Below are positions 10,602-36,235 of a DNA stretch of 48,201 nucleotides, one piece after another. A program made the translations under genes and the position numbers. Where the stretch lies: the IMG/VR virus record IMGVR_UViG_2910705042_000001; one strand, written 5' to 3'. The DNA is from a virus. Each line of letters begins with the position of its first letter. Positions within the stretch are counted from its first letter, which is position 1. A model generated the notes under the pieces. That model ran no database searches. It worked only from the letters and a program-made list of their open reading frames with translations, and was not told the DNA's origin.

Positions 10602-11936
10602 ATGAACATGAGTGCGGGTGCCCGTGAGCGCCAAGAGCAGTTCCGTCGTCCGACCGGAGAATATGGAACCCAGCCGGGAGTAAATGCGCCGGGGGCGATC
10701 AGCCTCGTCCAAACCCCCGTCCGCTATTCCTTCATTGAAGAGCGTCAGAGGCAAGAAGACGAATATGAGGCCCGTTTTGATGGGATGCCTAAGAGGTTCT
10801 TCTCCACGGACCTTGAGACGAAGCGTTCACTTGATAACCTCGCAAAGGCAGCCTCCACCCCGCAAGATGAGACATTGGATTTTGAGACGATTTCCGAGCT
10901 GGCAGGATCGTTGGGGATCACCGGACTGACAGAGGTGAGCGACAAAACACGTGGCTTCCTCGGGAAGAATCCGGGGGAGCACGCGTGGGTGGGCAGGGTC
11001 GGTGATGCGCAGGTCATCATCTCCTCCCACAGGTCCGGCAGCGCGTTTGCTCGGTACACGTTTCGCCGAAACCCTGGCGATCCGGCTGTTGAGGGGCGCG
11101 GGTTCTACATGCTCGATGCCCGTTCATTGGCGGGGGCCGCCCGTATTCAGCACGTGACGGGCAGCGACCTCTACAGTCACTTCACCCAGATTGGGACGAG
11201 GGAAGAGAGGGTTGCTCTACTCGAAGAGCTTTCCGCCACCAAGAAGTCATTGATGCAGGCCCAGAATGAGGGCCGTAACTTCCAGCTGAACAAGAAGTAT
11301 GTCTCGGATCGCAAGTCCGAAATTGCCACGGCATTCTCGGACAAAAAGCACCCCGACACCATCCATCAGCGTCTCATGTCTCAGACACAGTTGAATGACT
11401 CGTTCGATCAGGTGGAGATCGACAATGATGTCTCCGAGGCCGATTGGAAGGAGTTCGAAGAGGCGTGGGCTGACACGAAAGACAAGCTTCCACCCATCCC
11501 TGAAGATCGCAAGCCGAAGTTGCGCATCCGCTATTTGGGTAAGCACCGGGCCGCTGGGCTATTCTCGCCTCACCACAACACGGTTGCGATCGACGTTCAC
11601 ACATCGGGATCGTTCGTTCACGAGATGGGTCATTACTACGACCACATGGTCTATTCCTCCCCGTCACTGTCGAAAGGATTCTCGTCACTAGCTCAGCGCT
11701 ATTCGGCGACGCTGGATGTGCCCGCTGACCGGACGGGCAAGTATGGGCGGGACTACTACACGACCCCAACTGAGATTCACTCCCGCCTTTTCGAGGTATA
11801 TGCGCACGAGCGGCTCGGGGTGCGTAATCGGATGTTGGACCCGTCCCGGTTCTCTCGGTTCGATTACGCCCCGATCATGAACAACCCGGGGTTGAAAGAG
11901 GACGCGTTCGCCTTCTTTGACAAGATGTTCGCCTGA
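10602..11936 (+). CDS. Tagged protein with zincin-like metallopeptidase (HEMGH) / LPD1-like C-terminus
   Basis: N-tag RQEQFRRPTGEYGTQPGVNAPGAISL; GLFSP...SFVHEMGHYYD; YYTTPTEIHSRLFEVY. Confidence 0.65.
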   Translation: MNMSAGARERQEQFRRPTGEYGTQPGVNAPGAISLVQTPVRYSFIEERQRQEDEYEARFDGMPKRFFSTDLETKRSLDNLAKAASTPQDETLDFETISELAGSLGITGLTEVSDKTRGFLGKNPGEHAWVGRVGDAQVIISSHRSGSAFARYTFRRNPGDPAVEGRGFYMLDARSLAGAARIQHVTGSDLYSHFTQIGTREERVALLEELSATKKSLMQAQNEGRNFQLNKKYVSDRKSEIATAFSDKKHPDTIHQRLMSQTQLNDSFDQVEIDNDVSEADWKEFEEAWADTKDKLPPIPEDRKPKLRIRYLGKHRAAGLFSPHHNTVAIDVHTSGSFVHEMGHYYDHMVYSSPSLSKGFSSLAQRYSATLDVPADRTGKYGRDYYTTPTEIHSRLFEVYAHERLGVRNRMLDPSRFSRFDYAPIMNNPGLKEDAFAFFDKMFA

Positions 11937-11956
11937 AATGTCTGGTTGGGGCGCTC

Positions 11957-11964
11957 CCGCACAC
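11957..11964 (+). promoter_or_regulatory. CCGCACAC octamer (leadered)
   Basis: CCGCACAC-TAGGCCAGT|GAAAGGAG; ATG 11989. Confidence 0.7.
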
Positions 11965-11988
11965 TAGGCCAGTGAAAGGAGCGCCCAT

Positions 11989-12882
11989 ATGACCGACTAT
12001 CCCAAAGCGCCCGCTAACCCTCTCGACCTCATCACTGACGAGTTTGGTTTTCAGATGTGCATGATGACACCAGAAGTTGCTGATGTGTGGCTGCGAGAGT
12101 TCAACAACCACAACCGGCCCCTCTCAGCCCCAGTGGTGAAAACACTGGCTTCCACCATTGAAAATGGCGAGTGGAAACTCACTCACCAAGGTATCGCCAT
12201 CGACAAGGACATCAACCTCATTGACGGGCAACATCGCCTCGCTGCGATTGTCTCTTCGGACACGACGATCCCGATCATGATCACGTGGGGTGTGGACCCG
12301 GATGTCTTTGATGTCATCGACACTGGACGCCGACGCTCCGGAACTGACGCCTTGGCTTTGTCCGAGTTCTCTTTCCCCAACCAGAATCTTGTTGCTTCGG
12401 TAACGAAGTTGTTGACGATCCGCAGGACCCGCACCCTTGAGAGCTTCTCAACCTCCGCAATACATCTGACCAACGCTCAGTTGCTTTCCCGACTGCGCGA
12501 GTTGAACCTTGAGGTCATGGAGGCGTCCGTGCCTATCGGGCAACGCTTCCATCTTCTCGGAGCAACGTCGGTAGGTGCCTTCACCTACGACGCACTCTGC
12601 GCTGGTGCTCCGGTTAACGTCATCTGTGATGAGTTCTTGACCCCCGTCGCAAAGCGTGTGGGGCTGCGCTCCCAGTCCGACCCCCGGTATGCGCTCTCGA
12701 GCTATATTGATCGGTCGAAGAATCGCCGCAACAACGACCGCACGCGTGCAGACGTGTACGCCACCATGTGCAAGGCGTGGAATGCGTGGGTTCGGGGCCA
12801 GGACCGCAGCATCTTTCGCGACCCGAACGCATGGGTTGACATCGTCGGACTACCCGACAGACAAACACGCTCGCACCCATGA
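11989..12882 (+). CDS. ParB/Srx-like N-terminal domain protein
   Basis: NNHNRPLS...GEWKLTHQGIAID...LIDGQHRLAAIV...IDTGRRRS. Confidence 0.7.
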   Translation: MTDYPKAPANPLDLITDEFGFQMCMMTPEVADVWLREFNNHNRPLSAPVVKTLASTIENGEWKLTHQGIAIDKDINLIDGQHRLAAIVSSDTTIPIMITWGVDPDVFDVIDTGRRRSGTDALALSEFSFPNQNLVASVTKLLTIRRTRTLESFSTSAIHLTNAQLLSRLRELNLEVMEASVPIGQRFHLLGATSVGAFTYDALCAGAPVNVICDEFLTPVAKRVGLRSQSDPRYALSSYIDRSKNRRNNDRTRADVYATMCKAWNAWVRGQDRSIFRDPNAWVDIVGLPDRQTRSHP

Positions 12883-12921
12883 CTCTCATGACTGCGAGCG
12901 TGCTGTGTGTCAGGTGGTGGC

Positions 12922-13113: not shown

Positions 13114-13203
13114 GTTCGTACGAAGGGAATACTGTCCGGGAGGCGGAGGATCGACGTGCGCTTGACGAAGTCGTGGACCTTGGATATCACCGACGGATCA
13201 TCT

Positions 13204-13497
13204 ATGTCTCCCAACGCCTGCGAGCTCATTGAGCTCATGGAGCAAGCACTGGGTGACACCGAACAGTTCTTCTGCAACAAGGTCATGAGGAACGTGCCCG
13301 GGCAGCCGGGTGCCTATGAAGGGGTGTTCGCCAACGCCTACGTGAAAGTTGACTTCTCGGGCGTCTTTGTTGTCAGTTCCATTTCGATCGAACGGGAAGG
13401 TGTCGTGGTCGACGTGGACTCATCGGGCGAACGTGAGATGCGTTTCTCAGCCTCACCGCAGCGGCCCCGCACACAACTGGGGTATGAGTATCAGTGA
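13204..13497 (+). CDS. Hypothetical protein; possible truncated CCFH-family member
   Basis: LIELMEQALGDTEQFFC...YEGVF resembles the family N-core; no CCFH tail. Confidence 0.35.
   Translation: MSPNACELIELMEQALGDTEQFFCNKVMRNVPGQPGAYEGVFANAYVKVDFSGVFVVSSISIEREGVVVDVDSSGEREMRFSASPQRPRTQLGYEYQ
13467..13474 (+). promoter_or_regulatory. CCGCACAC octamer
   Basis: CCGCACAC-AACTGGGGT-ATG (13484). Confidence 0.75.
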
Positions 13498-13966
13498 TGA
13501 CGCGGCTAGTCGCCGTGAACAGTACCGCAACCCTGTCGGACAGTTTGGTACCCAGTCGGGGGTGAATGAACCCAGCGGAGTATGCCTGTCCACACCTGAA
13601 ACGTCATACGACGACACGACAGTCGACACTGCGGCAAACAACGCCCTGCGTGCCGCGTTCTGGACGGACGCCGATGAGATCAATGAGGACGGCAAACTCT
13701 CGGCGTACGACTTCTCCGATCACGCCTGCGAACAGATGACACAGGACCTGAAAGACTTCTACGCCCAAGCCGGACCCATCATCGAACGCACCGGTATGTC
13801 TGCCGACCACGTGGGCCACAACTTCTGGTTGACCCGCAACCACCATGGGACGGGTTTCTGGGATCGAGAACTCGGTGACGATGGGGACAAGCTCACCGAC
13901 ATTGCCCAGTCCTTCGGAGAAGTCTCACTCTTTGTCGATGACGACGGGAAGTTCGACTACGAATGA
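13484..13966 (+). CDS. Tagged acidic phage/plasmid-type protein (GHNFWLTRNHHGTGFWDR)
   Basis: N-tag SRREQYRNPVGQFGTQSGVNEPSGVCL; start set by the octamer. Confidence 0.7.
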   Translation: MSISDDAASRREQYRNPVGQFGTQSGVNEPSGVCLSTPETSYDDTTVDTAANNALRAAFWTDADEINEDGKLSAYDFSDHACEQMTQDLKDFYAQAGPIIERTGMSADHVGHNFWLTRNHHGTGFWDRELGDDGDKLTDIAQSFGEVSLFVDDDGKFDYE

Positions 13967-13971
13967 GACTG

Positions 13972-13979
13972 CCGCACAC
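13972..13979 (+). promoter_or_regulatory. CCGCACAC octamer
   Basis: CCGCACAC-TACCTCGGT-ATG (13989). Confidence 0.75.
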
Positions 13980-13988
13980 TACCTCGGT

Positions 13989-14693
13989 ATGAATATCAGT
14001 GATGACGCGGCCAGCCGCCGTGAACAGTACCGCAACCCCATCGGACAGTTCGGCGCCCAGCCGGGAGTCCACTCTCTCGGACAGGTGAGCCTCAACCCGA
14101 GCCGGTTTACCGACCAGGAGCGAGAGTTCATCCAGATGGGGCGGCGGGCCAGTGCGCGTCCCTACCAGTTCTGTGACGAGCATGGCATCAGCGCCTCAGA
14201 CAAGAATCATCCCATCTTCACAGGATTCGTGGGGGACACCTGTGTCACCATTGCCGTCCACCCAGGCGACGAGAGACTGGTGATGATGGAGCGCGACGGC
14301 ATGTCTATGGAGGTGCGCCAACGCTCGGGTGAGAGTGAGCCCTACCGCATAGATTTCTCCAGTGCTGGGCACGCATACGTTCACACCATTGATGAGGACG
14401 GACGTGTCTTCGATAGCGTCTCATACTTGCGGACTGGAGAACTGTCGGCCAGATGCTCCGACCCCCAGTGGCGACAATACACAACAGCACACACCAATGG
14501 CGTCGACAATCTCGTGCCCGTCACCTTCATCCCCGGCAAAGAACCGGGAACCTATACCGATCCTTTCGGCAACGAAACACTCAGCCAAAGGGATGTTGAC
14601 GAGCGTTTCAGCCCCACCACGTGTTGTTTCCACTCCGACTTCGATGACTCGATCTTCGAGGATACCTCTGCCTTCCTGACGGAGACTCACTAA
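13989..14693 (+). CDS. Tagged CCFH-family protein
   Basis: N-tag SRREQYRNPIGQFGAQPGVHSLGQVSL; tail DERFSPTTCCFHSDFD. Confidence 0.7.
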   Translation: MNISDDAASRREQYRNPIGQFGAQPGVHSLGQVSLNPSRFTDQEREFIQMGRRASARPYQFCDEHGISASDKNHPIFTGFVGDTCVTIAVHPGDERLVMMERDGMSMEVRQRSGESEPYRIDFSSAGHAYVHTIDEDGRVFDSVSYLRTGELSARCSDPQWRQYTTAHTNGVDNLVPVTFIPGKEPGTYTDPFGNETLSQRDVDERFSPTTCCFHSDFDDSIFEDTSAFLTETH

Positions 14694-20916: not shown

Positions 20917-21060
20917 TGTGCGGTACGAGGCGCCCCACACATAACGCCTAGAACGACGACACTGACCGCGTCGCCCAACTGGAAAGGGACACCCCCCGAC
21001 CTCTTCCGACAGATCTCGACATGATCCGGTTTAACGACAGCGGTGAATTGCCCCGGCTAC

Positions 21061-21068
21061 CCGCACAC
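21061..21068 (+). promoter_or_regulatory. CCGCACAC octamer
   Basis: CCGCACAC-AAAGAAGGT-ATG (21078). Confidence 0.75.
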
Positions 21069-21077
21069 AAAGAAGGT

Positions 21078-21686
21078 ATGACCACACACCTTGAATACGC
21101 CGCCATCGTCAACCTCGCGTTGGGCGTGGACGAGCATCCAGACCAGTACAATCTCACCGCCTTCCATGAGGAAGGGTATTCCGGACTCAACGGCATCGTT
21201 GATGGGCACGACGTGACGTTGATCCACGATGCCGACGGGAGCATCACAATCCTTATCTTCGATGAAAGTGGCGTCGGAAAGCAGATGCAGATTGTTCATA
21301 GCGCCGATGGGGGAGCCTCCTACCACCTGAGCCTCGACAATGTCGGCGCGATCAGGCACATGTCCGAAGCATCTGGGGCGAGCCTGGACTACATTGGCGG
21401 ACCACGCCCCACCTCTGATGTCTCCATCCGGCGTATCTCGCCAACCGGTGATGTCAGCTTTGAGTACTTCTCCCATGAGGGAGGACAGTCAATCTGCGTC
21501 AGTGGGCGCTCAGGTCTCCCCGGCTCGTATGTGGCGACAAACATCGTGTCTCACGACGTTCGAGTCCTCACCCAAGAGTCTCTCGACCAGATGTTCGGTC
21601 CCCAATGTTGCTTCCACTCCTCATTCGACGAGGCAACATTCGATGAGAACGCCGCCTTCCTCCGTGAGGGTAGTGCTCGGCTATGA
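21078..21686 (+). CDS. CCFH-family protein (untagged)
   Basis: Tail DQMFGPQCCFHSSFDEATFDENAAFL. Confidence 0.7.
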   Translation: MTTHLEYAAIVNLALGVDEHPDQYNLTAFHEEGYSGLNGIVDGHDVTLIHDADGSITILIFDESGVGKQMQIVHSADGGASYHLSLDNVGAIRHMSEASGASLDYIGGPRPTSDVSIRRISPTGDVSFEYFSHEGGQSICVSGRSGLPGSYVATNIVSHDVRVLTQESLDQMFGPQCCFHSSFDEATFDENAAFLREGSARL

Positions 21687-22342
21687 CTGTCACCTGCCAC
21701 GAGTCCACTTCTACGCTTCCTTCTTCTGTACAGGTGTCTCTCGCGCATCTCATCACGCGTGACCCGTGGGATTTCCAACGATCGTGCGGGATGGGAATGT
21801 TCACGGAAGAGGAAGAGAGCGGGTTCTCCGGCACGATCGGTGAGCTCCGCATCGGTTATGTGTGCCACCGGGGAGAACAGTGTGTCGTCATTGAACGCGC
21901 CAACCATGCGGTGTTTGCACTGACCACCCGTACAGACGGATTCATCTGCGAGGTACCCAACCACTTCACATACGAAGTTCACGGGGGCATCACCTATGAG
22001 ACCATCCATGGAGCATCGCATTCCCTGAACATTCGCGTCACGTTCTCTCACGAACGCGTCCGTCTGCGTCACATCGCACCGTTCACGCTCGAGGTTGATA
22101 ACACGCAGCCCAATCCCATCCTCGACGTCTGCCCGTCGGAGGATGGTTCGGGGTCGTACACCGTGTATGACAGGGACGCCGGCACATCACAGATAATCGA
22201 CCAGGACGAGGTTGACCGTCGCTTCGGTCCCGAATGCTGTCTGCATTCCAGCTTCGACACGTCGGTATTCGACACCTTGAAGAATTATGTTCTCACGGGT
22301 GAGTCCGAGCTTCATTTGCTGGGCTTCGGACGCAGTATTTGA
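21683..22342 (+). CDS. CCFH-family protein (untagged)
   Basis: Tail DRRFGPECCLHSSFDTSVFD; ATGA overlap with the previous gene. Confidence 0.7.
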   Translation: MTVTCHESTSTLPSSVQVSLAHLITRDPWDFQRSCGMGMFTEEEESGFSGTIGELRIGYVCHRGEQCVVIERANHAVFALTTRTDGFICEVPNHFTYEVHGGITYETIHGASHSLNIRVTFSHERVRLRHIAPFTLEVDNTQPNPILDVCPSEDGSGSYTVYDRDAGTSQIIDQDEVDRRFGPECCLHSSFDTSVFDTLKNYVLTGESELHLLGFGRSI

Positions 22343-23158: not shown

Positions 23159-25798
23159 TCAGATATCTGTTGCGGCTTTGAGTGCATCCCGGAATTCGGA
23201 CATGCGGTTCTCCTGGTTGTAGAACGGCAGGCCGATGATTCTGTAGTCGGTATTGTCGACGTAGATGGTGTGCGGGATAGCGTTCTGCTCGATGGCGAGC
23301 AAGAATTCTTCCTTCCATTTGTCGGTTTCGAGTAGGTGCGTACCCTTCGGCTCCACGTAGATCTGTTGCTGCTGGTAGGGCTGGCCCTTCCGGCGCAAGA
23401 AGAGGAGGAAGTCGGGTTCGAATCGTTCGCCGGTCTCAAACGAGTAGATGGCGAGCGGCGCCAGCCGTTCGTTGCGCACCAGGCAAACCTCGTCGTAGCG
23501 CTGTTTGAGGTCGTCGACAACGGTCGAGAAGTACTTGACGAAGGATTTCTCTTCGCTGGTGCCATAGTTGTCGTTGTAGACATACCATTCGGCGTTTTCA
23601 AGGTTAACGCGACGGATGGAATCAGGATCGCTGCTTTGGCTAGTTCCGATCCCACCTTCGACCGGATTCGCGATCTGTAGGCGCTTGTTGCGTAGTACCT
23701 CGTTCAACCGTTTGGCTTCGAACTGATGCGTGCCACGGTAGGTGACCTTGATGCCTGCCATGTAGCTGGCGACGGCTCGGAAGACTATGTCTAGGCCAGT
23801 CCTCAAGTCAGCCGCAGTGAGGTCTACAGTGTCGCTTTGGAAGGTGATCTCAGTTTCGCCGAGGTAGTCGCTAGACGTGATGAACTCGCGGGTCGATTCC
23901 AAGTGAGGGAAATAGTGCTTGAGCGCCTCGAAGCGGAGTGCGTCGTAACGCGCCAACGATCCCAAGGTCACATTCAATGGCATCTCGTTGATCCTACGGC
24001 GGATCGTATGCACCTTCGGATTCTCGGACTTGTCTGTTTGCTCGGTGGCTGTATCGAAGAGACTAACGAGCCGTGAGGGGGCGTGGCGGACATCGCGTTG
24101 GTAGATCGCCGACTTGACCCGGTTCTCCAGTTGGGTCACTCCATCCCGGGAGACTTCCTCGCGGCTGTTACTGAACACCATCGCGTTGTGGTAGAAGTCA
24201 GTCTGTTTGAACGACGATTTGAGTTCGTAAGTGACTTCGGTGACCTCATCAGGCAGTAAGCCTGTTTCACGTAGCGCGAGGCGTAGCTCGGTGATGTACT
24301 TCGAGTCCTGCTTGGAGTGGTAGAGCAGGGTTTCAAGGAGCCGGTTGGGGCTGTCAAGGTCGTGATCGTACTTGCGGACGGACTTGTCTGCCTGGTCGCG
24401 ATCAATGGACTCGTTTTCAAGAAGGAACGGGAAGTAGCGCGCTCCGCGCCCGATCAACTGAGCTTCCTTGATCGTGTACGCGCCGGGCTTGCCTGCTTTG
24501 CCTCCCTGACGAGTTTCGTAGAGGCGGACGATGTCGTAGAGGTTTAGGACGTCCCAGCCTTCGTTGAGCATGTCGACCGTGAAGATGATCCGATACGGGT
24601 TGGAGTGATCTTCGAGGGAGTTCACTGCCAACTGCTTCTCAGTCGAGTTGTCGGTCGAGCCATTCATGATGATGGCGTTCTCTTCAGCAAACCCCTGCTG
24701 GATGCTTGAGCGCAGGGAGCGTAGGCTCGGATCCTTCTCCTGGAAATAGCCGATGGCTTGTTTCATCAGGCCGTCGGTGGCCAAGTCCTGGATTTCGGAC
24801 TCGGTGAGTCGTTGGAGTCGCTGGAAGAACTGGTCGTAGAACGCTTTCGAATCATCGATCCTTTGCGACTTCAACAAAACAACCGGTTTCGAGTACACGC
24901 CACCATCAGCGAACAGTGCACGGCGATACTCAGACAAGATCAGTGATTGAAGAGTCCTTCCCCAGGGATCGAAGACAGATTGGAAGTTCTGGAAGTCCTT
25001 CGTGAACCCAGACTCGCGGAATCGCGCCAGCGGGTAGTCAAAGACAATCTTGTCCTTGTACTTCCGAAGAATGTTGCGGTCACGCAGATCGACAGTCGCC
25101 GTGAACTCCAGCAGCACATTATACCGGTTACCTAGAAAGGCCGAGATGACCGTGTATTCCCATGAGCGGTCCTCCTCGTCCTCGGACTTCGTGGCCCTCT
25201 TCGTTCGCGTATTCACGTGGTGTGACTCGTCAGAAATCATCACCACCGGTGCATCCTCGAAGTCATCGCTTGTGAGCGCGTTTTCCTTCGGATCAAGGAA
25301 ATCCATGTGCAGTTTTTGCGTCGTCGAGAAACAGAGGTTGATAGCGTTCGGATCGGCGGCAGCGAAGTTGTTGACCTCGTTGATGGGAACCCGCATACCA
25401 TCGATCTCAATTGACTCGGCGAACAGATACTTCGCTGAAGCCGAGTCCAAGAAGTTGGCTTTGGTTTTCTCGATGATGTTCGTTTGATTCACGAAGAACA
25501 GGAAGTTGCGGTATCCGAGCGAGTAGTAATGCAGGATCAGGCCAGCCATCATCACGGTCTTACCTGAACCGGTCGCCATGTGGTAAAGCAAGTGCGTCTG
25601 TCGGTTCTTCGAGAAGTTCTCGTTGCTCAGATATTCGAGCGTGTTTGAGAACGCGTGCTCTTGGTATTCGCGCAACTCGATGTGCGGGGCGAGATTCTGC
25701 TCGATGTGGGCAGGTAGCTCGTGTCGATTCCCGAAGTCATAGAAGAGGTCGAGTTGCTGGAACAGGAGCATGTCTTGGGTAGTTGGGACGCTCATCAT
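23159..25798 (-). CDS. res: Type III restriction endonuclease (Res subunit)
   Basis: SF2 helicase motifs MATGSGKT, DESHH, FTAT, EGWDV, QLIGRGAR; C-terminal PD-(D/E)xK (FEPDF...VEPKG); overlaps the mod stop. Confidence 0.9.
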   Translation of the reverse strand: MMSVPTTQDMLLFQQLDLFYDFGNRHELPAHIEQNLAPHIELREYQEHAFSNTLEYLSNENFSKNRQTHLLYHMATGSGKTVMMAGLILHYYSLGYRNFLFFVNQTNIIEKTKANFLDSASAKYLFAESIEIDGMRVPINEVNNFAAADPNAINLCFSTTQKLHMDFLDPKENALTSDDFEDAPVVMISDESHHVNTRTKRATKSEDEEDRSWEYTVISAFLGNRYNVLLEFTATVDLRDRNILRKYKDKIVFDYPLARFRESGFTKDFQNFQSVFDPWGRTLQSLILSEYRRALFADGGVYSKPVVLLKSQRIDDSKAFYDQFFQRLQRLTESEIQDLATDGLMKQAIGYFQEKDPSLRSLRSSIQQGFAEENAIIMNGSTDNSTEKQLAVNSLEDHSNPYRIIFTVDMLNEGWDVLNLYDIVRLYETRQGGKAGKPGAYTIKEAQLIGRGARYFPFLLENESIDRDQADKSVRKYDHDLDSPNRLLETLLYHSKQDSKYITELRLALRETGLLPDEVTEVTYELKSSFKQTDFYHNAMVFSNSREEVSRDGVTQLENRVKSAIYQRDVRHAPSRLVSLFDTATEQTDKSENPKVHTIRRRINEMPLNVTLGSLARYDALRFEALKHYFPHLESTREFITSSDYLGETEITFQSDTVDLTAADLRTGLDIVFRAVASYMAGIKVTYRGTHQFEAKRLNEVLRNKRLQIANPVEGGIGTSQSSDPDSIRRVNLENAEWYVYNDNYGTSEEKSFVKYFSTVVDDLKQRYDEVCLVRNERLAPLAIYSFETGERFEPDFLLFLRRKGQPYQQQQIYVEPKGTHLLETDKWKEEFLLAIEQNAIPHTIYVDNTDYRIIGLPFYNQENRMSEFRDALKAATDI

Positions 25799-27780
25799 TC
25801 GCCCTTCTGGTAGAAGGACTTCGTGAACGCGACGTCAGCCTCCGACAAGCCGAGGTCAGCATCTTCGACTTCTGCGGCGTTGACGTACAGCCGGTTCTTG
25901 TCGACCAGCTCAGCCACGGTCATTTTCTGGTCGTCGAAGGACAGCTCCGCGAACTCCGACGCGGAAGTTGCTAGTTCGTCGGGCAGGACAGATGGTCGCA
26001 GCAGGCCACGCTCAGTCGCTCGATCGAGTACCAGCTGAACCTCATCCGTAGTTGTGGCGTTCCGCAGTTCGCTCATCAGCTGCTCGCCCTGCTCGGCAAG
26101 CTCGACGTAGACGAACGAGCCGCCCCCATTCCATCCGACGCTCTTGCTAACCCCAGACTTGTCACCATGGATCACTTTGCGCAATCGGACAAGAGGGCTG
26201 TTGTTTCCATAGTCAAGCTGTTCGATACCTATGTATCTGCGGCCCATTTTATGTGCGACGGCAGCCGTCGTACCAGAACCGAGATGGTAATCGAGAACCA
26301 AATCACCCGGATTTGTGTTCAAAGCAATAATGCGTTGAAGGATTTTCTCAGGCTTCTTCCCTCCTTTTAATGTAACGCCCCCCTCAGCTGCAATGCCTTC
26401 GTACGGGGTATCAGACCATATGTTTGTAACCTGCATGCTAGGCACAAGCTCATTATCGATCTTGCGGACCTTCTTCGAATAGAATGCCAATTCCTGGCCG
26501 TTATTTACGTATACGGTGTACTGGTTTTCTCGTTCGATAACAATAATGTTCTCACCCGCCTGCCTTGAGGCGTCACGTGCCGCTACAACTTGAGCACCAG
26601 CCTTATCGCTAATAGCCGTGTAGCGGAACACCGAGTCATTGTGCTGCAAAGCAAATTCAGCTGCCATTTCCTCGACTGCGGCTTTGCCGAGCTGTCCCCG
26701 CATTTTTACTACGCTGGAAAATCCGTTCTGTTCTGCGAGGTAGTCGTAAATGCTTACGATTCTCCATTCGTCAGGCGCTTCACCTTTGTTCGTTACGTAG
26801 TACTTATAGTTGTTGTCCCACTCTGTGGCCACATACTGTGTGTTGTATCGCCACTGACGCTTATCCTTTCCGAACGCAAGAACATACTCCGCTGTTTCGA
26901 AGACTCCAGCGTTTACGCTCGCGAATCCCGAGGGCGACTTTGTGCGGACAGTGATCTTGTTAAGGAAGTTCTCCTCGCCGAATACTTCTTTTAGCAAGAG
27001 ATGCAGTTCGGCAACTCCATCATCACTTATTTGAACGAATATGGCTCCGTCTGGAGTGAGGAGCCGACGGGCCAACTGCAATCGGTTTTCCATGAACGTT
27101 AGCCAGGTGCTCTTCTTGAATTTGCTGTTGTAAGCAAAGGTGTCTTCAGCTCTTGCCGCATTGAAGTAGTAAGGCGGGTCGATGTAAATGCACTTGACTT
27201 GGCCTTCGTACCGTTCTAGCAGTGAGCTCAGGGCGAGCAGATTGTTGCCTTTGATGAGAAGGTTGTCGTGCTCATCGAACTCAGTAACGTGTTCTTCCCC
27301 TTCTGCCGTGTATCGAGTCGCGTTGCTGAAAGCTTTGGGGGCTAGGAGTCGGCCTATTTCGTCTGGTGCGAGTGTTTCGTTGTAGAAGATTTCGTCGCGT
27401 TTTTCGTCTTCTTTGTCTTGACCACCTTCGAGTACGCAGTCTTTGTATGGCCATACGAGGGAGACTTCGGTCGAGGAGGTGAGTAGGTCGTGGTCGTTGA
27501 CGGAGAGGCCGATCTTGTTGCGATAGCTGGTGTAGCTGTCGGGTAGGAATTCTTTGGAGTTGACGACCCACATGAATTTCTCTTGGTCGAAGATAGTGAT
27601 CCCATCTACGTCTTTGAAAAAGTGTCCTTTCAGAACCGATGAGGCCATGAGCAGGCGAATCAGTTGTGAGTCGAGCTGGCTAACAGCGTCCTGGATTCGT
27701 GGTTTGAGTAGTTGCCCCTCTTGGGTAACGAAACGTTCATCGCTTTTGAGGATAGTTTCAAGTTCTTGGAGAAACTTCAA
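25795..27780 (-). CDS. mod: Type III adenine DNA methyltransferase (Mod subunit)
   Basis: IKGNNL, IYIDPPY, KPEKIL, DYHLGSGTT; likely TTG start at 27780 (ORF is open to 27849). Confidence 0.9.
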   Translation of the reverse strand: MKFLQELETILKSDERFVTQEGQLLKPRIQDAVSQLDSQLIRLLMASSVLKGHFFKDVDGITIFDQEKFMWVVNSKEFLPDSYTSYRNKIGLSVNDHDLLTSSTEVSLVWPYKDCVLEGGQDKEDEKRDEIFYNETLAPDEIGRLLAPKAFSNATRYTAEGEEHVTEFDEHDNLLIKGNNLLALSSLLERYEGQVKCIYIDPPYYFNAARAEDTFAYNSKFKKSTWLTFMENRLQLARRLLTPDGAIFVQISDDGVAELHLLLKEVFGEENFLNKITVRTKSPSGFASVNAGVFETAEYVLAFGKDKRQWRYNTQYVATEWDNNYKYYVTNKGEAPDEWRIVSIYDYLAEQNGFSSVVKMRGQLGKAAVEEMAAEFALQHNDSVFRYTAISDKAGAQVVAARDASRQAGENIIVIERENQYTVYVNNGQELAFYSKKVRKIDNELVPSMQVTNIWSDTPYEGIAAEGGVTLKGGKKPEKILQRIIALNTNPGDLVLDYHLGSGTTAAVAHKMGRRYIGIEQLDYGNNSPLVRLRKVIHGDKSGVSKSVGWNGGGSFVYVELAEQGEQLMSELRNATTTDEVQLVLDRATERGLLRPSVLPDELATSASEFAELSFDDQKMTVAELVDKNRLYVNAAEVEDADLGLSEADVAFTKSFYQKGE

Positions 27781-28669
27781 TGTGCGGCCTCTTCCTTCAT
27801 AGTTAGGGTTGTTGTTAGTTGCGCGTCCATCTGTCTGCAAGGAGCGCATGAACTTTTGACAAGCAACCGAATGGCTGCGTAAGTGCAGAAGTGCCGGCTA
27901 GACAACCGCCGCCCACTCTGTGTTGAACGGCGTCGTAACGCGTCATCGGCGACCCAGAAGAATAATGCCAACTGGCTCATGCGTCTTCTGCCTTATCTTT
28001 GTCCGCAGGCACAACTTCGAGGATGTCTGCCATTTGGCAGTCGAGTGCTCCGCAAATGCGCAGAAACTTGTCTGCCGTGTCCCACACGATCCGGGCCGTA
28101 GCCGATGCTGCTGCCCTCGTTGCCTCGTTCGCCATGCCTCGTTGCTCCTATGTTTTCGCGCACTGATACCACTCACTCACCGTGAGTCGGCCTCTTTGCA
28201 TGTGGTCTCGCGAACCTCGTGGACGTGTTCGGCGAGACCGTTCACCACGGATTACCCTAGTCTGTCATCTTCATGGAGAGCCATGTGGAATCGTATAGCG
28301 GGAGTTACTGCTTCACGTCGATGAGGGTGTATGCGGCCTCGTCTTCGTCGAAGAACTCTTCTCCGTTGACTTCGGTCATTTCAAACATCGACTCGTGCAT
28401 TTCGCACTGTACGAGGTACTCACCACCTGCAAGGGCCTCCTCTTTCGCGACGCAGAAGGTATCCTGCTCCCGTTCTTCCGTGGCATGTGAGCAAGGATGA
28501 CGTGGTATATGTGGTCCACTCCTCTTTACTGTCGGCCCCGCTCCCTCGGTCCAATCGCGACCCACCACCGACGCCTTAGAGCTGAGGCGGCGATACGGAC
28601 ACATCCGCCAATGTCAGTGCACCGAGTGGGGAGTTCACATCCGGCGGTGCATGGGCAATCCATATATCG

Positions 28670-28686: not shown

Positions 28687-29442
28687 ATGAGCGCAGTATT
28701 TGACGAGCACGATCACCCTCGCACCCCGCATGGACAGTTCACGACCAAGTCTGGACAGAACACCGCTTCAGGCGTGAGTCTGGCGGGACATGCCGCGTGG
28801 AGTATTGACGACCCCGAGTTTCAGAGGATGAACGGTTCACTGCCTCACCTAGATGGGGCAGAAATCGAGTTCGACAATGGCGAAAAGGCGATCATCCACG
28901 TCCTTTCCTTGCGTGGATCAACATCCACGTACACACACCTGACCGACCTTGAGGGGAACGAGCGTCCGATGTATATCCCGTCCCCACATACCTACCGCAT
29001 TACCTCGTGGGACGGTGACCCGCAGCGGTTGGAGAACGAACTTGAGTACGTGAATCGGCGACAAGAAACCATAAAGGCGGCCCGCGAAGAGGAGCAGCGT
29101 CGGACCGATGTCTTCAACCTTTTCGACGCTCAAGACGAATACTTCGCCGAGTCCATGACCGTTGTCGACGCCAGTGGGTCCGTGCGCATCCCGTACGCCA
29201 ATGCCGATGGGTCGCGCAGTGGATATCTCTTCTACACCCCGGAAGATGGTTCGATCCATGTTCGTCCGGGTTCGGATACGACGTCCCAGCGGTACACACG
29301 TATGAAGAACGTCTGCGAGACCAGCGCATTCGGTGAGGCCGCCCAGACGTATGTGGACGCGCACAAGGACTGCGTTGCGTGCATGAAGAGTTCGCGTGAA
29401 CAAGGCGACCTCCTCGAAGAGACCTACGGACGCCGTTACTAA
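28687..29442 (+). CDS. Tagged protein, LPHLDGA family paralog 1
   Basis: N-tag FDEHDHPRTPHGQFTTK...GVSL; IDDPEFQRMNGSLPHLDGAEIEF; YRITSWDG. Confidence 0.7.
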   Translation: MSAVFDEHDHPRTPHGQFTTKSGQNTASGVSLAGHAAWSIDDPEFQRMNGSLPHLDGAEIEFDNGEKAIIHVLSLRGSTSTYTHLTDLEGNERPMYIPSPHTYRITSWDGDPQRLENELEYVNRRQETIKAAREEEQRRTDVFNLFDAQDEYFAESMTVVDASGSVRIPYANADGSRSGYLFYTPEDGSIHVRPGSDTTSQRYTRMKNVCETSAFGEAAQTYVDAHKDCVACMKSSREQGDLLEETYGRRY

Positions 29443-29458: not shown

Positions 29459-30232
29459 ATGACCCATCCCACAGATGCCCGCCGAGAACTGTACCGACGC
29501 CCCACCGGAGAGTTCGGCAACCAGCCGGGAGTCAACGCAGCCTCGAGCGTGAGTCTCGCGCCAGATACGCCACACCTGAACATTGACGAGCCGAGATTCC
29601 AGACGATGACCGGACCCCTGCCCCATCTGGATGGGGCGCGAGTAGAGTTTTCCGATGGACGGTCAGGGACTATCCGAGTGAAGACCCCTCATGGTTATCG
29701 TGCTGCCGCCGCTTACGTGGAAGACGAGTCGGGAGAACGTGTGGAATCCTACATCCCACCGTCCACCACCTACCGGCTCACCTCCTGGGACGGCAGCCAG
29801 GAACGCCTCGACGACGAACTCACACTCATCCGTCTCCGCCAAGACGAGAACGACTCCTACGATGCCATGGATGAGGCGAGAGACCGTGTTGCCGGATGCT
29901 TTTCCGATGAGGACGAGCTCTTCTCGCGAACACCCTATTGCACCGATCGCAGCGGGGTGCCAGAGCTTCGAGTGCCATACTCCAACATCAGATCTCCGCA
30001 AAACTCCGGCGCGCTCTATTACAACCCGCAGACGAAAACCGTGAGAGCAGGGGCACGTGCGAACACGAGGTCTAGGAGAGCGGCGCGTATCAGGAAGCTC
30101 ATGTCGACACCTGAGTTCATGAGTGCCGCAGATGATCTTATGCGTGAGTCCGCGAACTTTCTCGATGCACAGGGCGCCCTCATCGCCCACCAGCTCCATC
30201 TCGAACACGTCTATGGGATGAGGTTCTCATGA
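29459..30232 (+). CDS. Tagged protein, LPHLDGA family paralog 2
   Basis: N-tag RRELYRRPTGEFGNQPGVN...VSL; IDEPRFQTMTGPLPHLDGARVEF. Confidence 0.7.
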   Translation: MTHPTDARRELYRRPTGEFGNQPGVNAASSVSLAPDTPHLNIDEPRFQTMTGPLPHLDGARVEFSDGRSGTIRVKTPHGYRAAAAYVEDESGERVESYIPPSTTYRLTSWDGSQERLDDELTLIRLRQDENDSYDAMDEARDRVAGCFSDEDELFSRTPYCTDRSGVPELRVPYSNIRSPQNSGALYYNPQTKTVRAGARANTRSRRAARIRKLMSTPEFMSAADDLMRESANFLDAQGALIAHQLHLEHVYGMRFS

Positions 30233-30804
30233 GTGGGTCGTTTTCTGAGTCCGAGCATTCACGGGATCCCATGGGCAGGTTCACCTCACGGGCGGGGATT
30301 CGTAACGTCCCGGACGTGAGCCTCACACCGACAGAGCCACGCTTGAGCATTGACGACCCGGAGTTCGCGGCGATGACAGGGCCCCTGCCTCATCTGGATG
30401 GGGCAGTGATTGAGTTCGATGACGGGTTTCGCGCCTATATTGGCACGCAAACCCACTACGTGGAACTCGAGACCGGCTACGTGCCTGAAGAGACCGAATG
30501 CTTCTATCGCGATCAGCGTGGAGAGACGTACAACCTCATTACCCCGTCCAATCATGCGTATCGCATTGTCTCGTGGGACGGGGATGAGCAGCGGTTACAG
30601 GACGAGTTGGCGCTTGTCCACCTGCGCAACCGCCTAGGGGAACTCGCATCTGCCGAGCCGGACAATTATGCCGATCGCATCGCCAACGCTGTCCTTATCA
30701 CGGAGACATCTCGGCTCATCCGCGAGCACCTCACATATGTGGAGACCACCTACGGCAGACGGAGAAAGGATCTGCGTTATGCGTGGGCTGGCTCCCTCGA
30801 CTAG
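30229..30804 (+). CDS. Tagged protein, LPHLDGA family paralog 3
   Basis: N-tag FSESEHSRDPMGRFTS...VSL; IDDPEFAAMTGPLPHLDGAVIEF. Confidence 0.7.
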   Translation: MSGSFSESEHSRDPMGRFTSRAGIRNVPDVSLTPTEPRLSIDDPEFAAMTGPLPHLDGAVIEFDDGFRAYIGTQTHYVELETGYVPEETECFYRDQRGETYNLITPSNHAYRIVSWDGDEQRLQDELALVHLRNRLGELASAEPDNYADRIANAVLITETSRLIREHLTYVETTYGRRRKDLRYAWAGSLD

Positions 30805-30832: not shown

Positions 30833-31221
30833 ATGACCAGCGACGCAGCGTCCCGCCGAGAACAGTCTCGACGGCCGACTGGGCAGTTCGGGAAACAGAA
30901 TCGCCCCCATGGGCAGGGAAAGATTGCCCTCGCGCCGTCTATCCCCGAATCGGTGGATCTGACGGGATTTCAGCCCCGGGGAAAGGGTTTGTCAAAACCA
31001 CGGGAGAAGACAACACGGTCAGTGTCGACGTGATGGATGGGCAGGTGGTGGTCTCACATGAGACGTTCAGTCCTAGCGGCTTCCTGTCCGTCAGCTCACT
31101 CATGTTCGATCCAGATGATGGCGTGGGCATCACCCGCGCTATTGACGAGTTTTCTTCCGAGAGCCAGATAGAGCCGCCAGCACACAACTCGATTTCGCGT
31201 GAGCGTGCATGGGGGTTGTGA
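30833..31221 (+). pseudogene. Frameshifted tagged paralog of gene 34112
   Basis: N-tag SRREQSRRPTGQFG; LAPSIPESVDLTGF matches LAPGFPEGVNLTGF of 34112; similarity (MDGQVVVS) continues in another frame after ~30990. Confidence 0.6.
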
Positions 31222-31222
31222 G

Positions 31223-31688: not shown

Positions 31689-32348
31689 ATGAGAACAGCA
31701 TTTGATGAGTCCGACCATCCACGCAGGCCCACTGGAGAGTTCACGACTAAGGCGGGGGTCAACGCACCTGGCGGGCTGAGTCTTGAGAGCCCGTCGCGCT
31801 TCTCATCCGAGGAAGACGAACAGATCCGCCTTGCCCACGACATCATGGTTGATCCGGACGGATACGCCCGGACCCATGACATCCCGACTTTCACAGAGCT
31901 TGGCAGTCACGGATGGGCGAAACTCATCGGCGATACGTACATGTCTGCCGGAGTGAATGGGCGAGAGACTGTCGTTCACATGGGCAATGCGACGATCACA
32001 AGCTTCCAAGGAGATACATCCACCGAACGGGCATACTCGATGCGACTGGGGGATCAGAGCCGGATACGACACACAGAGGATCTCCACAGCACGCTCGACA
32101 CCATTGAGCATTCGGCAGGTGGGGTGAGCGAGCGCTTGACCGTTGATGGTGAGTCATCCATTGTGTTCACGAGCCGACGCGGAGAAGCAGTGTCGCGAAC
32201 GGGAGACGGTACCTACCTTGTCGGTCGTGGCGAAACTCTCAGTCAGTCCGAGGTGGATGAGAGGTTCGGTCCCCAATGTTGCTTCCACTCCTCATTCGAC
32301 GAGGCAACATTCGATGAGAACGCCGAGTTCTTGACTGGCTCGCGATAG
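31689..32348 (+). CDS. Tagged CCFH-family protein
   Basis: N-tag FDESDHPRRPTGEFTTKAGVNAPGGLSL; tail DERFGPQCCFHSSFDEATFD. Confidence 0.7.
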   Translation: MRTAFDESDHPRRPTGEFTTKAGVNAPGGLSLESPSRFSSEEDEQIRLAHDIMVDPDGYARTHDIPTFTELGSHGWAKLIGDTYMSAGVNGRETVVHMGNATITSFQGDTSTERAYSMRLGDQSRIRHTEDLHSTLDTIEHSAGGVSERLTVDGESSIVFTSRRGEAVSRTGDGTYLVGRGETLSQSEVDERFGPQCCFHSSFDEATFDENAEFLTGSR

Positions 32349-32427: not shown

Positions 32428-33138
32428 GTGGCAGACAGTATCGAACCCGTACACGTCGACGAAGCCGGATATGAGACCCACCCAGCGTTCGGTGTCGTCA
32501 CAGTTTCTCGGAGTCACGGAGACCGTAGGGCTGTGTTCCAGTCCGACATTGAACACAACGACACGATCCGTCTGCGGGTGTTCCACGCCGACCGCAGGCG
32601 AAACCTCAAACGAGACTGGGTGCATCCGACCCAACGAATCCTTGAAATCGAGATGAGTCTGGCCCAATGGGGTGAGCTCGTCTCTTCCATCGGCATCGGT
32701 TCAGGCGTCCCTGTCACACTTCGGTCCACCGAGTCACGCCACCACATCCCCGAACTCGAGTTCGCACCGCGCGTGGAGGTGTCCTTGTCGGAAGTTGATT
32801 CGGCGGTCGACACTCTCTTGGAAGACATCACCACCTCTCTGACTGATGTGGAAGAGGCCATCGAATCCAAGGCTGGCATCCGGGCGACCCGTGACGCTAT
32901 GCGCAAGCTCCGCTCCTGCGTCGAGAACGCCCGCCCAAACGCCCGCTATGTCGTCACAGCCTTGTCCGAGGCGGCAGAAAAGGTCGTCTCCCAATCCAAG
33001 GCCGACATCGAAGCCACCATTCTTCACGCCTACGGTGCCGTTACCGGAGTGGATACTCCCGCCGCACTGGGTGGTCAGACCCACGACAGTGGACGCCTGA
33101 CCGAAACCCGCACACAAGACTCCCATGAAGACGAATGA
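32428..33138 (+). CDS. Phage/plasmid-type hypothetical protein
   Basis: ETHPAFG...IEMSLAQWGELVSS.G.GSGVPVTL followed by a coiled coil. Confidence 0.65.
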   Translation: MADSIEPVHVDEAGYETHPAFGVVTVSRSHGDRRAVFQSDIEHNDTIRLRVFHADRRRNLKRDWVHPTQRILEIEMSLAQWGELVSSIGIGSGVPVTLRSTESRHHIPELEFAPRVEVSLSEVDSAVDTLLEDITTSLTDVEEAIESKAGIRATRDAMRKLRSCVENARPNARYVVTALSEAAEKVVSQSKADIEATILHAYGAVTGVDTPAALGGQTHDSGRLTETRTQDSHEDE

Positions 33139-33739
33139 TGCGACACAATGCTGCCCCACGAGGTTCAGCGACACTGACCGTGAGCGTTTCGAGATTGTTC
33201 GGAGGGCTGACAGGTATCCGGGCGCGACCCTGCTCGATGAGAATGTGCGCGTGAGTGTCGGGGAGGGTTCGCTCACGTTTGACAAGGATATGGACGCTCA
33301 CCGCCTGCTTGTTGTTCGGGATGCTGAGAAGACCTCGATCACTGTTTCATCGGGAGGGGTGGGTCAGGTTCATCTCGATTCGTTCCACGGAGGGTATCGG
33401 GAGTGGAGCGTCGTGTCTGAAAACGGGATGCTTCGTGCCCACTACGTTCCGCTTGCCTTCGGTGCGGTGGATGTGTGTATCGAGGGTGGTGATGGAAGCG
33501 TGAACCGGAGGAGTGATGCCTTGGGTCCTGCGTGCTACGTGTTCGCAACCGGTCATGTTCTTGTGCGTCGGGGAGAGTCGGACACGTTTGTTGTCGACGA
33601 TCAGGGTTCCGGCAGGAGAGAAATCATCGGTCAGAGTGTGCTTGATGAGCGGTTTGGACCCCAGTGTTGCTTCCACTCCGGGTACGACATCGGTGTCTTT
33701 GATGAGGTTGTGGACTTCTTTGCGAGGGCTGAGCGATGA
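33125..33739 (+). CDS. CCFH-family protein (untagged)
   Basis: Tail DERFGPQCCFHSGYDIGVFD. Confidence 0.7.
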   Translation: MKTNDATQCCPTRFSDTDRERFEIVRRADRYPGATLLDENVRVSVGEGSLTFDKDMDAHRLLVVRDAEKTSITVSSGGVGQVHLDSFHGGYREWSVVSENGMLRAHYVPLAFGAVDVCIEGGDGSVNRRSDALGPACYVFATGHVLVRRGESDTFVVDDQGSGRREIIGQSVLDERFGPQCCFHSGYDIGVFDEVVDFFARAER

Positions 33740-34089: not shown

Positions 34090-34094
34090 GTGGC

Positions 34095-34102
34095 CCGCAC
34101 AC
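34095..34102 (+). promoter_or_regulatory. CCGCACAC octamer
   Basis: CCGCACAC-TACTAGGGC-ATG (34112). Confidence 0.75.
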
Positions 34103-34111
34103 TACTAGGGC

Positions 34112-34891: not shown

Positions 34892-34961
34892 GCAGTTCAT
34901 GTCCTACCGGGGGGCTGCCAGAGATGGTGGCTTCCCGGTTGTTTGTGTCTGTGGGTGGCAC

Positions 34962-34969
34962 CCGCACAC
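34962..34969 (+). promoter_or_regulatory. CCGCACAC octamer
   Basis: CCGCACAC-TACTAGGGC-ATG (34979). Confidence 0.75.
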
Positions 34970-34978
34970 TACTAGGGC

Positions 34979-36235
34979 ATGAGCATGAGTGCGAGCGCCA
35001 AGGAGCGCCAAGAACAGTACCGCAAGCCCACTGGTGAATACGGCAACCAGCCGGGAGTCAACGCCCCCGGGGGCGTGTCTTTAGCCCCAGACACGTTGAC
35101 GCGTGATGAGTTTGCCCGCACTCATTCCATCCCAGGACCAGATGAGGACTGGACCCAAGAAGCCCTGACCGGAGGGTTCTCCAAGCAAGGATGGGGACAA
35201 CTCAACCACGCCACACCGATCGCCACCGGGATCACCATATGCGACGGTGAAAGCCATGGCGGCATCAAGCTTTCCCCCGAGCGCAACGCCCACATACCCA
35301 AGTCCCTGCGCACGAGCTCGGGGTGGTATGAGGAAGACTGCGAGTTCCACATTGTCTCCATGTGCTACCCAGAAGAGTTCTCCCGCTCGACGGCATGGAC
35401 GAACAATCGCAGTGCCGATGAGTGGTTTGAAGACTCGAGTGACAGCGTGCGCGGATGGTTCCCCAACCAATGGGAAGAAGCCACCGGTAGAACAATCGCA
35501 CCCGGTGAGTCTCGCCTACGCGACGAGCAGGTGTTCATGGAGGAAACGAAAGACGCTTTCCACCTGCGCACATGCAAGAGTGACGCCGAGAATCCCGGAT
35601 GCCTCATCGCCAGTCTCCGCCGCCCATCCGATGACAAAGGGGTTCTCGCGCGTGTGTCGGAAGAGGCAGATCACAGGTGTTCCCACCTCAAGGCATACGA
35701 CGAGACCTCGCTCGATGTCCTCTCCGAAGCGGTCACCCCAGTTCTGGCCGAGAAGAGGATCTATAAAGGTGCGTCACCCGACTTTTCTCATCTCTCCCCG
35801 TCACGCCGGCACGCGGCGGGAGAGGCCCTGGGCAAGCTGTACCGCTACCCAGAGGGGGTCATGAGCCGGGCAGAGCACATCGCCACACTCCCCGTCACGG
35901 GGCGTGAACACATCGGGCGTGGCTATTACATCGCCTACGATCAGAAAAACGACAATGGAACAACGACGACCCATGTGACGAAGCTGCCCAAGGAGGCGTG
36001 GGAGGCGTACGGGCACATCCCTGAACGGACAGATGTCGTAGATGACGAGCGCATCGCCCAGCGTGGATGGAGCGTTGCCGGGTTCGACAAAGCCCATGCC
36101 GCCTACGTCGCGAGCGCCCGTGAGAATGGATACCTGACGCAGAACGGGCAGGTGTCTAGGGATGCTCCGCAAGAGGCCAAGGATGTGTTTGAGGATCTGA
36201 GGGTTTTCGGTGCTCGGAACTGGTTGAACAGCTGA
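34979..36235 (+). CDS. Tagged protein with DUF7007-like domain
   Basis: N-tag RQEQYRKPTGEYGNQPGVNAPGGVSL; WG...GI...SHGGIKLSPERN...GWYEEDCE. Confidence 0.65.
   Translation: MSMSASAKERQEQYRKPTGEYGNQPGVNAPGGVSLAPDTLTRDEFARTHSIPGPDEDWTQEALTGGFSKQGWGQLNHATPIATGITICDGESHGGIKLSPERNAHIPKSLRTSSGWYEEDCEFHIVSMCYPEEFSRSTAWTNNRSADEWFEDSSDSVRGWFPNQWEEATGRTIAPGESRLRDEQVFMEETKDAFHLRTCKSDAENPGCLIASLRRPSDDKGVLARVSEEADHRCSHLKAYDETSLDVLSEAVTPVLAEKRIYKGASPDFSHLSPSRRHAAGEALGKLYRYPEGVMSRAEHIATLPVTGREHIGRGYYIAYDQKNDNGTTTTHVTKLPKEAWEAYGHIPERTDVVDDERIAQRGWSVAGFDKAHAAYVASARENGYLTQNGQVSRDAPQEAKDVFEDLRVFGARNWLNS

Follow-up and report, generated by a model that had tools for sequence, protein, structure and literature searches.

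How proteins other than the relaxase are marked for passage through a conjugation channel is for the most part poorly defined, particularly in Gram-positive bacteria. In Xanthomonadales, the effectors of type IV secretion systems (T4SSs) carry a secretion signal, XVIPCD, which is bound by the all-alpha domain of VirD4 (PMC8740702). In the F system such proteins are known to move by conjugation: the F-type plasmid pED208 transfers ParA, ParB, SSB, PsiA and PsiB (PMC8406263). The present analysis concerns a 48,201-nucleotide (nt) stretch of DNA (IMG/VR record IMGVR_UViG_2910705042_000001, here called the window), which corresponds to positions 1,002,232-1,050,432 of a complete 2.66-Mb chromosome, and a peptide of about 30 residues, the tag, which stands at the N-terminus of many otherwise unrelated proteins encoded there and on related replicons.

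The window lies inside an integrated island of ~148 kb that begins with an integrase-like gene next to smpB; amongst its products are VirB4, a wall hydrolase, two FtsK-like ATPases, a VirD4-like protein, DnaE, SSB and a PD-(D/E)XK nuclease. The island is an integrated conjugative element (ICE). Its nearest VirB4 relatives are found on megaplasmids of Arthrobacter, Paenarthrobacter, Curtobacterium and Bifidobacterium, one tagged member of the family, pMP7017, being a known conjugative plasmid (PMC10832533), and when 401 genomes of the order were sampled, ~10 contained the element family.

The tag and the proteins that carry it

A preliminary description of the window had placed the tag at the start of 11 open reading frames (ORFs), in a type A form (R[RQ]E[QL]xRxPxG[QE][FY]GxQ...[VI]xL) and a type B form ([FY]xExxH[PS]RxPxG[QER][FW]...[VL]xL), with a hybrid of the two on gene 31689 (genes are named by the position of their first letter). 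A six-frame search located all 11, with the types and the hybrid as claimed: the common core, R-x-P-x-G-[QER]-[FYW], has exactly 11 matches in the window, all on the + strand, and its Arg lies at residue 12-15 in each of the 11 tagged ORFs. Codon shuffling of the window gave a mean of 0.61 core matches and never more than three (100 shuffles), and a chance origin is therefore rejected. Across these tags the R, P and G of the core, together with a Leu 20 residues past the Arg, are invariant and in register.

The invariant R, P, G and L positions are each encoded by 2-5 different codons, and the type A copies share 54-76% DNA identity over their first 35 codons. Within the tag, non-synonymous differences (pN) amount to 0.17-0.40 per site and synonymous differences (pS) to 0.62-0.72. 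When all pairs are compared, pN is 0.26-0.40 in the tag and rises to 0.68 just downstream, whilst pS lies at 0.64-0.76 in both regions; pN/pS is ~0.3-0.6 inside the tag as against ~0.9 just downstream, figures for which the synonymous sites are close to saturation and the pairs non-independent, although the direction is clear. Because pN is far below pS within the tag, it is clear that selection acts on the tag peptide and not on its DNA. Conservation at the DNA level only, which had been named beforehand as the outcome that would tell against the tag, is rejected, synonymous sites having diverged much more than non-synonymous ones. The tagged genes and their promoter boxes are listed below.

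1-1411, + strand: tagged KTSC/zinc-ribbon core protein; ORF 56-1411, the real start lying 47 nt before the window (genome 1002185)
10585-10592, + strand: CCGCACAC box, 9 nt upstream of the start codon of gene 10602
13467, 13972, 14778, 28670, 31672, 34095 and 34962: further CCGCACAC boxes
10602-10706 (gene 10602-11936), + strand: type A tag of a 444-residue HExxH/LPD1-like protein
13484-13588, + strand: type A tag of a 160-residue acidic protein
13989-14093, + strand: type A tag of a CCFH-family protein, 234 residues
14795-14890, + strand: type B tag of a CCFH-family protein, 232 residues, GTG start
28687-28782, + strand: type B tag of an LPHLDGA-family protein, 251 residues
29459-29557, + strand: type A tag of an LPHLDGA-family protein, 257 residues; ribosome-binding site, no promoter box
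30229-30324, + strand: type B tag of an LPHLDGA-family protein, 191 residues; start overlaps the preceding stop, no box
30833-31033, + strand: type A tag of a 66-residue stub, a truncated relative of 34112; no box
31689-31784, + strand: A/B hybrid tag of a CCFH-family protein, 219 residues
34112-34216, + strand: type A tag of a 259-residue acidic protein with no family match
34979-35083, + strand: type A tag of a DUF7007 protein, 418 residues (DUF7007 E 8e-31)

The KTSC gene follows a gene for a soluble FtsK/TcpA-like ATPase and carries a tag variant with one additional loop residue, a tag-like N-terminus being found in all ten members of its family. The protein of gene 10602 has an HExxH motif and a weak match to LPD1 (E 0.005), with related bodies in G233 and G348 (genomes of the sample are given by number). 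The DUF7007 family of 34979 is tagged in seven of seven members across six elements, each time in the local dialect of the tag; a search for relatives with 34979 as the query returned DUF7007 fragments only. Library and sequence matches thus bear out the claim of at least six body families, DUF7007 (34979), HExxH (10602) and CCFH amongst them, and CCFH bears out the claim that a single family may carry tag A, tag B or none: 13989 has tag A, 14795 and 31689 have tag B, and 9375, 21040, 21683 and 33125 are untagged. These untagged members lie at 9375-9692, 21040-21686, 21683-22342 and 33125-33739, most of them preceded by the private box, and the family, with seven copies, is confined to this element among the replicons compared.

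The count of at least 11 different cargo proteins needs amending. Whilst the 11 tags are present, 30833 is merely a 66-residue stub, its 59% identity to 34112 being confined to the first 46 residues, and the set of the element is larger than 11, with four additional island tags at genome 931054, 935748, 1002185 and 1060293, the last of them broken. The broken copy (L006:12293-12424), at the right end of the island, repeats the 5' part of gene 10602 (promoter, tag and opening codons) with a frameshift and is possibly a rearrangement scar. As to how bodies acquire a tag, residues 43-160 of 13484 structurally match untagged phage proteins of ~120 residues (template modelling (TM) score 0.82-0.88 by target). 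These phage proteins are without the N-terminal extension, and hence the tag can be joined to an imported gene.

Two further loci adjoin this cargo. A low-GC pair at 23159-27849 (- strand), resembling the Res and Mod genes of type III restriction-modification, interrupts the tagged region, and a large ATPase/TOPRIM-like gene of the OLD type, as judged by eye, adjoins the cluster at 36419-38479 (- strand).

Spread, dialects and promoter box

For the wider survey an iterated tag profile was applied to ORF starts, a match having to outscore every one of 6,142 host-chromosome starts (none of which, by construction, counts as tagged), and ten entries of the tagged-gene set were added by eye. A tag-profile search of the chromosome finds no match outside the island. 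Tagged genes number ~38 on pACHL01, 26-31 on the Arthrobacter zg-Y1110 plasmid, ~50 on Curtobacterium pS16 and 3-7 on pMP7017, together with 49 in G391 (Pseudactinotalea terrae), 15 in G382, 12 in G068, 11 in G409, 8 in G413 and at least 6 in G348, and a Cellulomonas element has ten tags within 21 kb. Seven replicons provide a set of 192 tags on 141 body families. Whole-genome searches with the tag profile (60-400 genomes), in which too few candidates were scored in each genome, missed elements with 8-50 tags, and blanks there do not mean absence. A single tag used in a tblastn search of plasmids gave two chance matches only, and neither the models of Pfam, NCBIfam, PHROG and PADLOC nor the sequences of the PDB include a match to the tag.

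Within the 192 tags the Gly is found at residue 9-34 (median 16), with an Arg 2-12 residues before it in all but three; it is followed by F, Y or W at +2, E at +9 (69%) and L at +14 (71%). The general form is hence R, a loop of variable length, G-x-F, then E and V-x-L. Types A and B are two of several dialects, another being the Arthrobacter dialect R-Q-P-x-G-x-P-x-G-G-Q-F; several dialects are present together on one replicon, and the elements of related hosts differ in dialect. The tag is predicted to be disordered: in an AlphaFold2 model of one tagged protein it has a predicted local distance difference test (pLDDT) score below 50 and no secondary structure. It had also been called charged; the median net charge is 0, and charge is therefore no distinguishing feature.

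Tags go with the replicon rather than with the body. In 77% of cases the most similar tag is one on the same replicon, where chance would give 19%, and a tag is identical to that of its orthologue at 7.1 of 25 positions as against 10.1 of 25 for tags of its own replicon, the replicons behind both statistics being few and related. Such dialects fit co-evolution with a reader encoded by the replicon and, equally, concerted evolution by shuffling of a 5' cassette.

The preliminary description had seen tag and promoter as one plug-in cassette. A CCGCACAC-type box indeed precedes 134 of 199 tagged genes; however, 143 box-led genes have no tag, and Bifidobacterium-type elements have tags without this box. 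Tag and promoter are hence separable, and within the window three of the 11 tagged genes (29459, 30229 and 30833) have no CCGCACAC box.

Nature of the cargo

Tagged proteins are soluble. A 19-residue hydrophobic segment is found in 1 of 144 of them, whereas 19 of the 143 box-led proteins that have no tag contain one (p=1e-5, by a crude hydropathy test), which upholds the earlier statement that the tag is no Sec or Tat signal; a signal peptide of either kind is rejected. The sole tagged protein with such a segment (168 residues) is encoded on the Arthrobacter zg-Y1110 plasmid (L061:18229-18732, - strand). Tagged bodies are also more acidic than untagged box-led proteins (p=3e-6) and have a median length of 250 residues and a maximum of 707 (five replicons). 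Amongst the bodies that can be recognised are Fic, GmrSD_N, NAD-dependent ligase, tRNA nucleotidyltransferase, DUF7007 and LPD1-like, LPD28 and LPD29 domains, the three LPD matches being below the Pfam curated cut-off or unchecked against it. Domains of this kind are typical of the invasion proteins of phages and conjugative elements, and Iyer et al. predict that they are delivered along with incoming DNA (PMC5512222). Of the island's core proteins for transfer and replication, 15 were tested and none has a tag. The tag had been described as a portable address label, and as a protein-level module on unrelated soluble cargo across the whole family it is well so described; the transfer, localisation and partner that the name implies are putative.

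A tagged sigma-70-like protein

One tagged gene, at genome 935748 in this ICE, encodes a sigma-like protein which is tagged in all six elements where it was found and in 16 of 17 database homologues. In this family the R, G, F and L of the tag are more than 90% conserved, and the tag is conserved as well as the body. Sigma-70 region 2 is the best match by profile, by Foldseek and by VIA, each of them weak alone: NCBIfam extracytoplasmic function (ECF) sigma models match up to 8 of 18 members (best E 8e-5), the Foldseek list consists of sigma chains except for one (best E 0.036), and the top VIA match is the sigma factor ShbA (Z 8.0, root-mean-square deviation 2.6 over 74 residues), for what is a helical bundle. 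The ICE protein belongs to the family by a profile built without it (65 bits, E 8e-19).

The sigma-like gene stands behind the private box in pACHL01, zg-Y1110 and G391 and behind close variants of it in pS16 and G233, and the protein may read the CCGCACAC box. Were it to read its own box, a newly entered element would need sigma supplied, a need which delivery of the protein would solve, although a second, host-read promoter would equally solve the start of the regulon after entry. A parallel for a delivered sigma factor is provided by some phages, which inject their own RNA polymerase. In this ICE the locus (genome 934687-936612; L002:9687-11612, - strand) is a 641-residue ORF in which two sigma-like paralogues are joined in frame: first comes an untagged copy, preceded by a CCGCACAC box, and then the tagged copy with its own ribosome-binding site.

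Occurrence in phage proteins

Against 1.84 billion proteins, the tag profile finds element proteins and, in addition, large proteins with 2-5 internal copies of the first half of type B, F-x-E-x-x-H-P-R-x-x-x-G-x-F. Some of these large proteins have MuF or ADP-ribosyltransferase domains or are neighbours of terminase or portal genes, and proteins of this class are presumed to be injected (PMC9503650). When viral contigs were scanned for the first-half pattern, at least 115 stretches matched; in phages it mostly lies within the protein and has a glycine-rich linker after it. The V-x-L second half is found in 0 of 71 phage cases as against 160 of 192 in the elements; because it is absent there, the phage and element settings have only half of the signal in common. 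A search for a conserved protease site ahead of the phage motif revealed none.

Proposed function and candidate readers

The reading that we favour, though tentatively and with slightly less than even confidence, is that the tag is a signal for the co-transfer of proteins into the recipient, read by a coupling ATPase. The tag would act as a short, disordered recognition peptide in two parts, an Arg and G-x-F across a variable loop and then E (+9) and V-x-L (to +14), and a single element-encoded reader would bind it on many unrelated soluble proteins. This reader would most likely be either the VirD4-like protein (genome 945195) or the soluble TcpA/FtsK-like ATPase (genome 999942), feeding tagged proteins N-terminus first into the recipient along with the DNA. 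There they would take effect immediately, in anti-defence and in DNA and tRNA repair; the sigma-like factor amongst them would turn on the CCGCACAC regulon. In its fullest form, as a dedicated protein-delivery arm in which the soluble TcpA/FtsK-like ATPase sends up to 50 tagged proteins per element, a regulon-starting sigma factor included, into the recipient by a core common to phage head effectors, the proposal is unlikely.

Amongst the transfer proteins, VirB4 (AAA_10, E 2e-21) and the wall hydrolase are clear. The VirD4-like protein gives weak matches only (TraG-D_C, E 0.04), with none in the PDB, and the relaxase candidate at genome 943837 appears Replic_Relax-like by eye, yet PF13814 gives no match. 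The soluble ATPase at genome 999942 (569 residues) adjoins the tagged KTSC gene and among plasmids is nearly confined to this element family. Its model (pLDDT 89) has three alpha/beta repeats at the N-terminus and a RecA domain, with no helical membrane anchor, and its fold is closest to FtsK and the pCW3 coupling protein TcpA (E 3e-15), EccC/EssC ranking lower. It coexists with the VirD4-like protein and with a second, membrane-anchored FtsK.

Tags and VirB4 occur together in this ICE, in four plasmids and in G391, G382, G068, G409, G413, G348, G233 and G418, whereas Glaciihabitans, Euzebya and G279 are exceptions. These exceptions are amongst several points that weigh against a transfer signal. 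The complete Glaciihabitans INWT7 plasmid has ~7 tags, both FtsK-like ATPases and the VirD4-like gene, yet no detectable VirB4, TcpC or VirB6 homologue, and tags therefore persist without a mating pore of their own. Conversely, a complete Euzebya plasmid has VirB4 and a VirD4-like gene without the small FtsK and without tags, although an over-divergent tag is possible there, a loose pattern occurring at the chromosome background of 1.4%. The contrast between these two plasmids points to the 569-residue soluble ATPase as the reader, as far as gene content can suggest it. G279, however, has the small FtsK without tags or a VirD4-like gene, and the drafts G233 and G418 are tagged but have none of the three ATPases, perhaps because the assemblies are incomplete or the elements have decayed. 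Each candidate reader has exceptions in its co-occurrence with the tag, which does not single one of them out. Moreover, replicon-specific dialects are also expected from 5' cassette shuffling with no reader at all, phages have no coupling protein, so that the first half would have to be read by something else in them, and each method taken singly supports the sigma assignment weakly. Finally, fifty substrates of up to 700 residues would far exceed the load of any conjugation system known to us.

Several observations concern these gene neighbourhoods. The Glaciihabitans plasmid (NZ_CP043654; L134-L136) has Tad-like and type IV pilus-like genes next to its ATPase module. G279 is a 0.9-Mb genome that keeps VirB4 and both FtsK-like genes (contig C3; L287-L289, L306-L307) and is perhaps a domesticated remnant. 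In this ICE, a 1,612-residue FtsK-like ATPase (L002:11648-16486, - strand; genome 936648-941486) matches DnaB intein structures in a stretch from residue 941, and the VirB4 genes of several relatives are likewise split by inserts. The Cellulomonas hominis element has an RbpA gene (L283:12735-13106) between the small FtsK and the tagged KTSC gene, with anaerobic ribonucleotide reductase genes upstream.

Alternative explanations

The tag could instead be a docking or degradation signal inside the producing cell, with nothing leaving that cell, an explanation which we regard as somewhat unlikely. A host protease or adaptor, a chaperone or a scaffold of the element, such as the FtsK-like ring or the KTSC protein, would time, sequester or localise potentially harmful proteins. 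Degrons and docking motifs typically look like the tag, being disordered terminal peptides on soluble proteins, and sigma factors are typical targets of timed proteolysis. Retention of tags on the Glaciihabitans plasmid without VirB4 would be expected, and a host-encoded reader would explain the first half in phages. Such a host reader is nevertheless difficult to reconcile with the lack of any tagged gene on the host chromosome and with dialects that differ between elements of related hosts whilst several coexist on one replicon. Moreover, the cargo is of the class predicted to be delivered with DNA (PMC5512222).

Alternatively, the R...G-x-F part could form a hairpin that serves as a small DNA hook, by which proteins ride on the DNA of the element during transfer or partition, or on DNA in the phage head, and no reader protein would be involved. 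The only partner that phage heads and conjugation have in common is DNA, two FtsK-like ATPases are encoded by the elements, and the tag core is similar to R-x-x-x-G-x-F, the type of minor-groove motif found in CCT and NF-YA proteins. However, the median net charge of 0 and the acidic residues with which type B begins are at odds with DNA binding, a hook does not account for the conserved half with E and V-x-L or for the strict placement of the tag at the N-terminus, and the tag profile matched no solved structure; we consider the hook improbable.

It is very improbable that the tag is a by-product of an expression cassette, in which the promoter and first codons spread for good leaderless translation and the peptide is nearly functionless. 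Most tagged genes do have the box (134 of 199), the hybrid 31689 and the stubs at 30833 and genome 1060293 reveal 5' shuffling, and replicon-specific dialects would follow. Yet pN is far below pS in the tag, its invariant residues use many codons, and type A copies have DNA identities of merely 54-76%. Conservation of these residues extends to different families of Actinomycetales and to phages, 143 box-led genes have no tag, and in the sigma-like family the tag is conserved as much as the body.

Packaging into a particle (the element's own capsid or that of a helper phage) or export by a type VII secretion system (T7SS), both envisaged in the preliminary description, is the least probable explanation, for although the first half is shared with phage head-associated proteins and the FtsK-like ATPase also resembles EccC/EssC at lower rank, neither a terminase (PF03354, TerL) nor a WXG100 protein (PF06013) was found in this genome or the four complete related plasmids, control genomes being positive for both and capsid and protease genes not searched separately.

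Significance

An explicit short tag would make the question of such signals testable by reporter fusions in culturable, non-pathogenic hosts, namely Pseudarthrobacter chlorophenolicus A6 with pACHL01 and Bifidobacterium breve with pMP7017. If the tag is a transfer signal, ~140 uncharacterised protein families become candidate early-invasion or anti-defence factors, and the tag could serve as a protein-delivery handle for actinobacteria. Even if it acts inside the cell, it is a motif on about one in ten genes of these replicons and in phage head proteins. No description of it was found in the literature searched, most subscription papers lying outside that search.

Comparison with known systems

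The likeness to XVIPCD is that of one common module on many unrelated effectors in a T4SS-bearing organism, and a coupling ATPase is the proposed reader here. XVIPCD, however, is C-terminal, ~120 residues long and folded, with a glutamine-rich tail, and belongs to Gram-negative killing systems, whereas the tag is N-terminal, with its Gly at residue 9-34, ~30 residues long and predicted to be disordered, and belongs to Gram-positive conjugative elements.

As regards pED208, non-relaxase proteins cross a conjugative T4SS with a requirement for the coupling protein and aid establishment in the recipient (PMC8406263); six substrates are involved and the passages of the paper used here give no common signal, whereas the elements described here have up to ~50 candidates each with an explicit peptide. 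The pCW3 TcpA and FtsK coupling proteins are the best structural matches of the 569-residue ATPase, which differs in its three N-terminal alpha/beta repeats and its lack of a helical membrane anchor.

The polyvalent proteins of Iyer et al. (2017, PMC5512222) share cargo domains with the tagged proteins (LPD1, LPD28 and LPD29, HExxH peptidase and Fic). Their ArdC-N header is likewise N-terminal and proposed to couple proteins to the conjugation apparatus. ArdC-N, however, is a folded single-stranded DNA-binding domain on multidomain proteins, whereas the tag is a short peptide on dozens of small single-domain proteins, and polyvalent proteins are defined as large polypeptides with 2-15 conflict domains, which tagged proteins, given their lengths, are not. 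A tag peptide is not described in the parts of that paper used here.

The capsid-targeting sequence of phage T4 (PMC9026906) is also a short N-terminal peptide on divergent proteins and ensures delivery into the next host, but it is 10 residues long, removed by gp21 and dependent on the capsid; the tag has no sequence likeness to it, no evident cleavage site and no terminase was found alongside. Read as a transfer signal, the tag would thus work in the manner of XVIPCD, the T4 capsid-targeting sequence and the ArdC-N header, yet it departs from the defining features of each.

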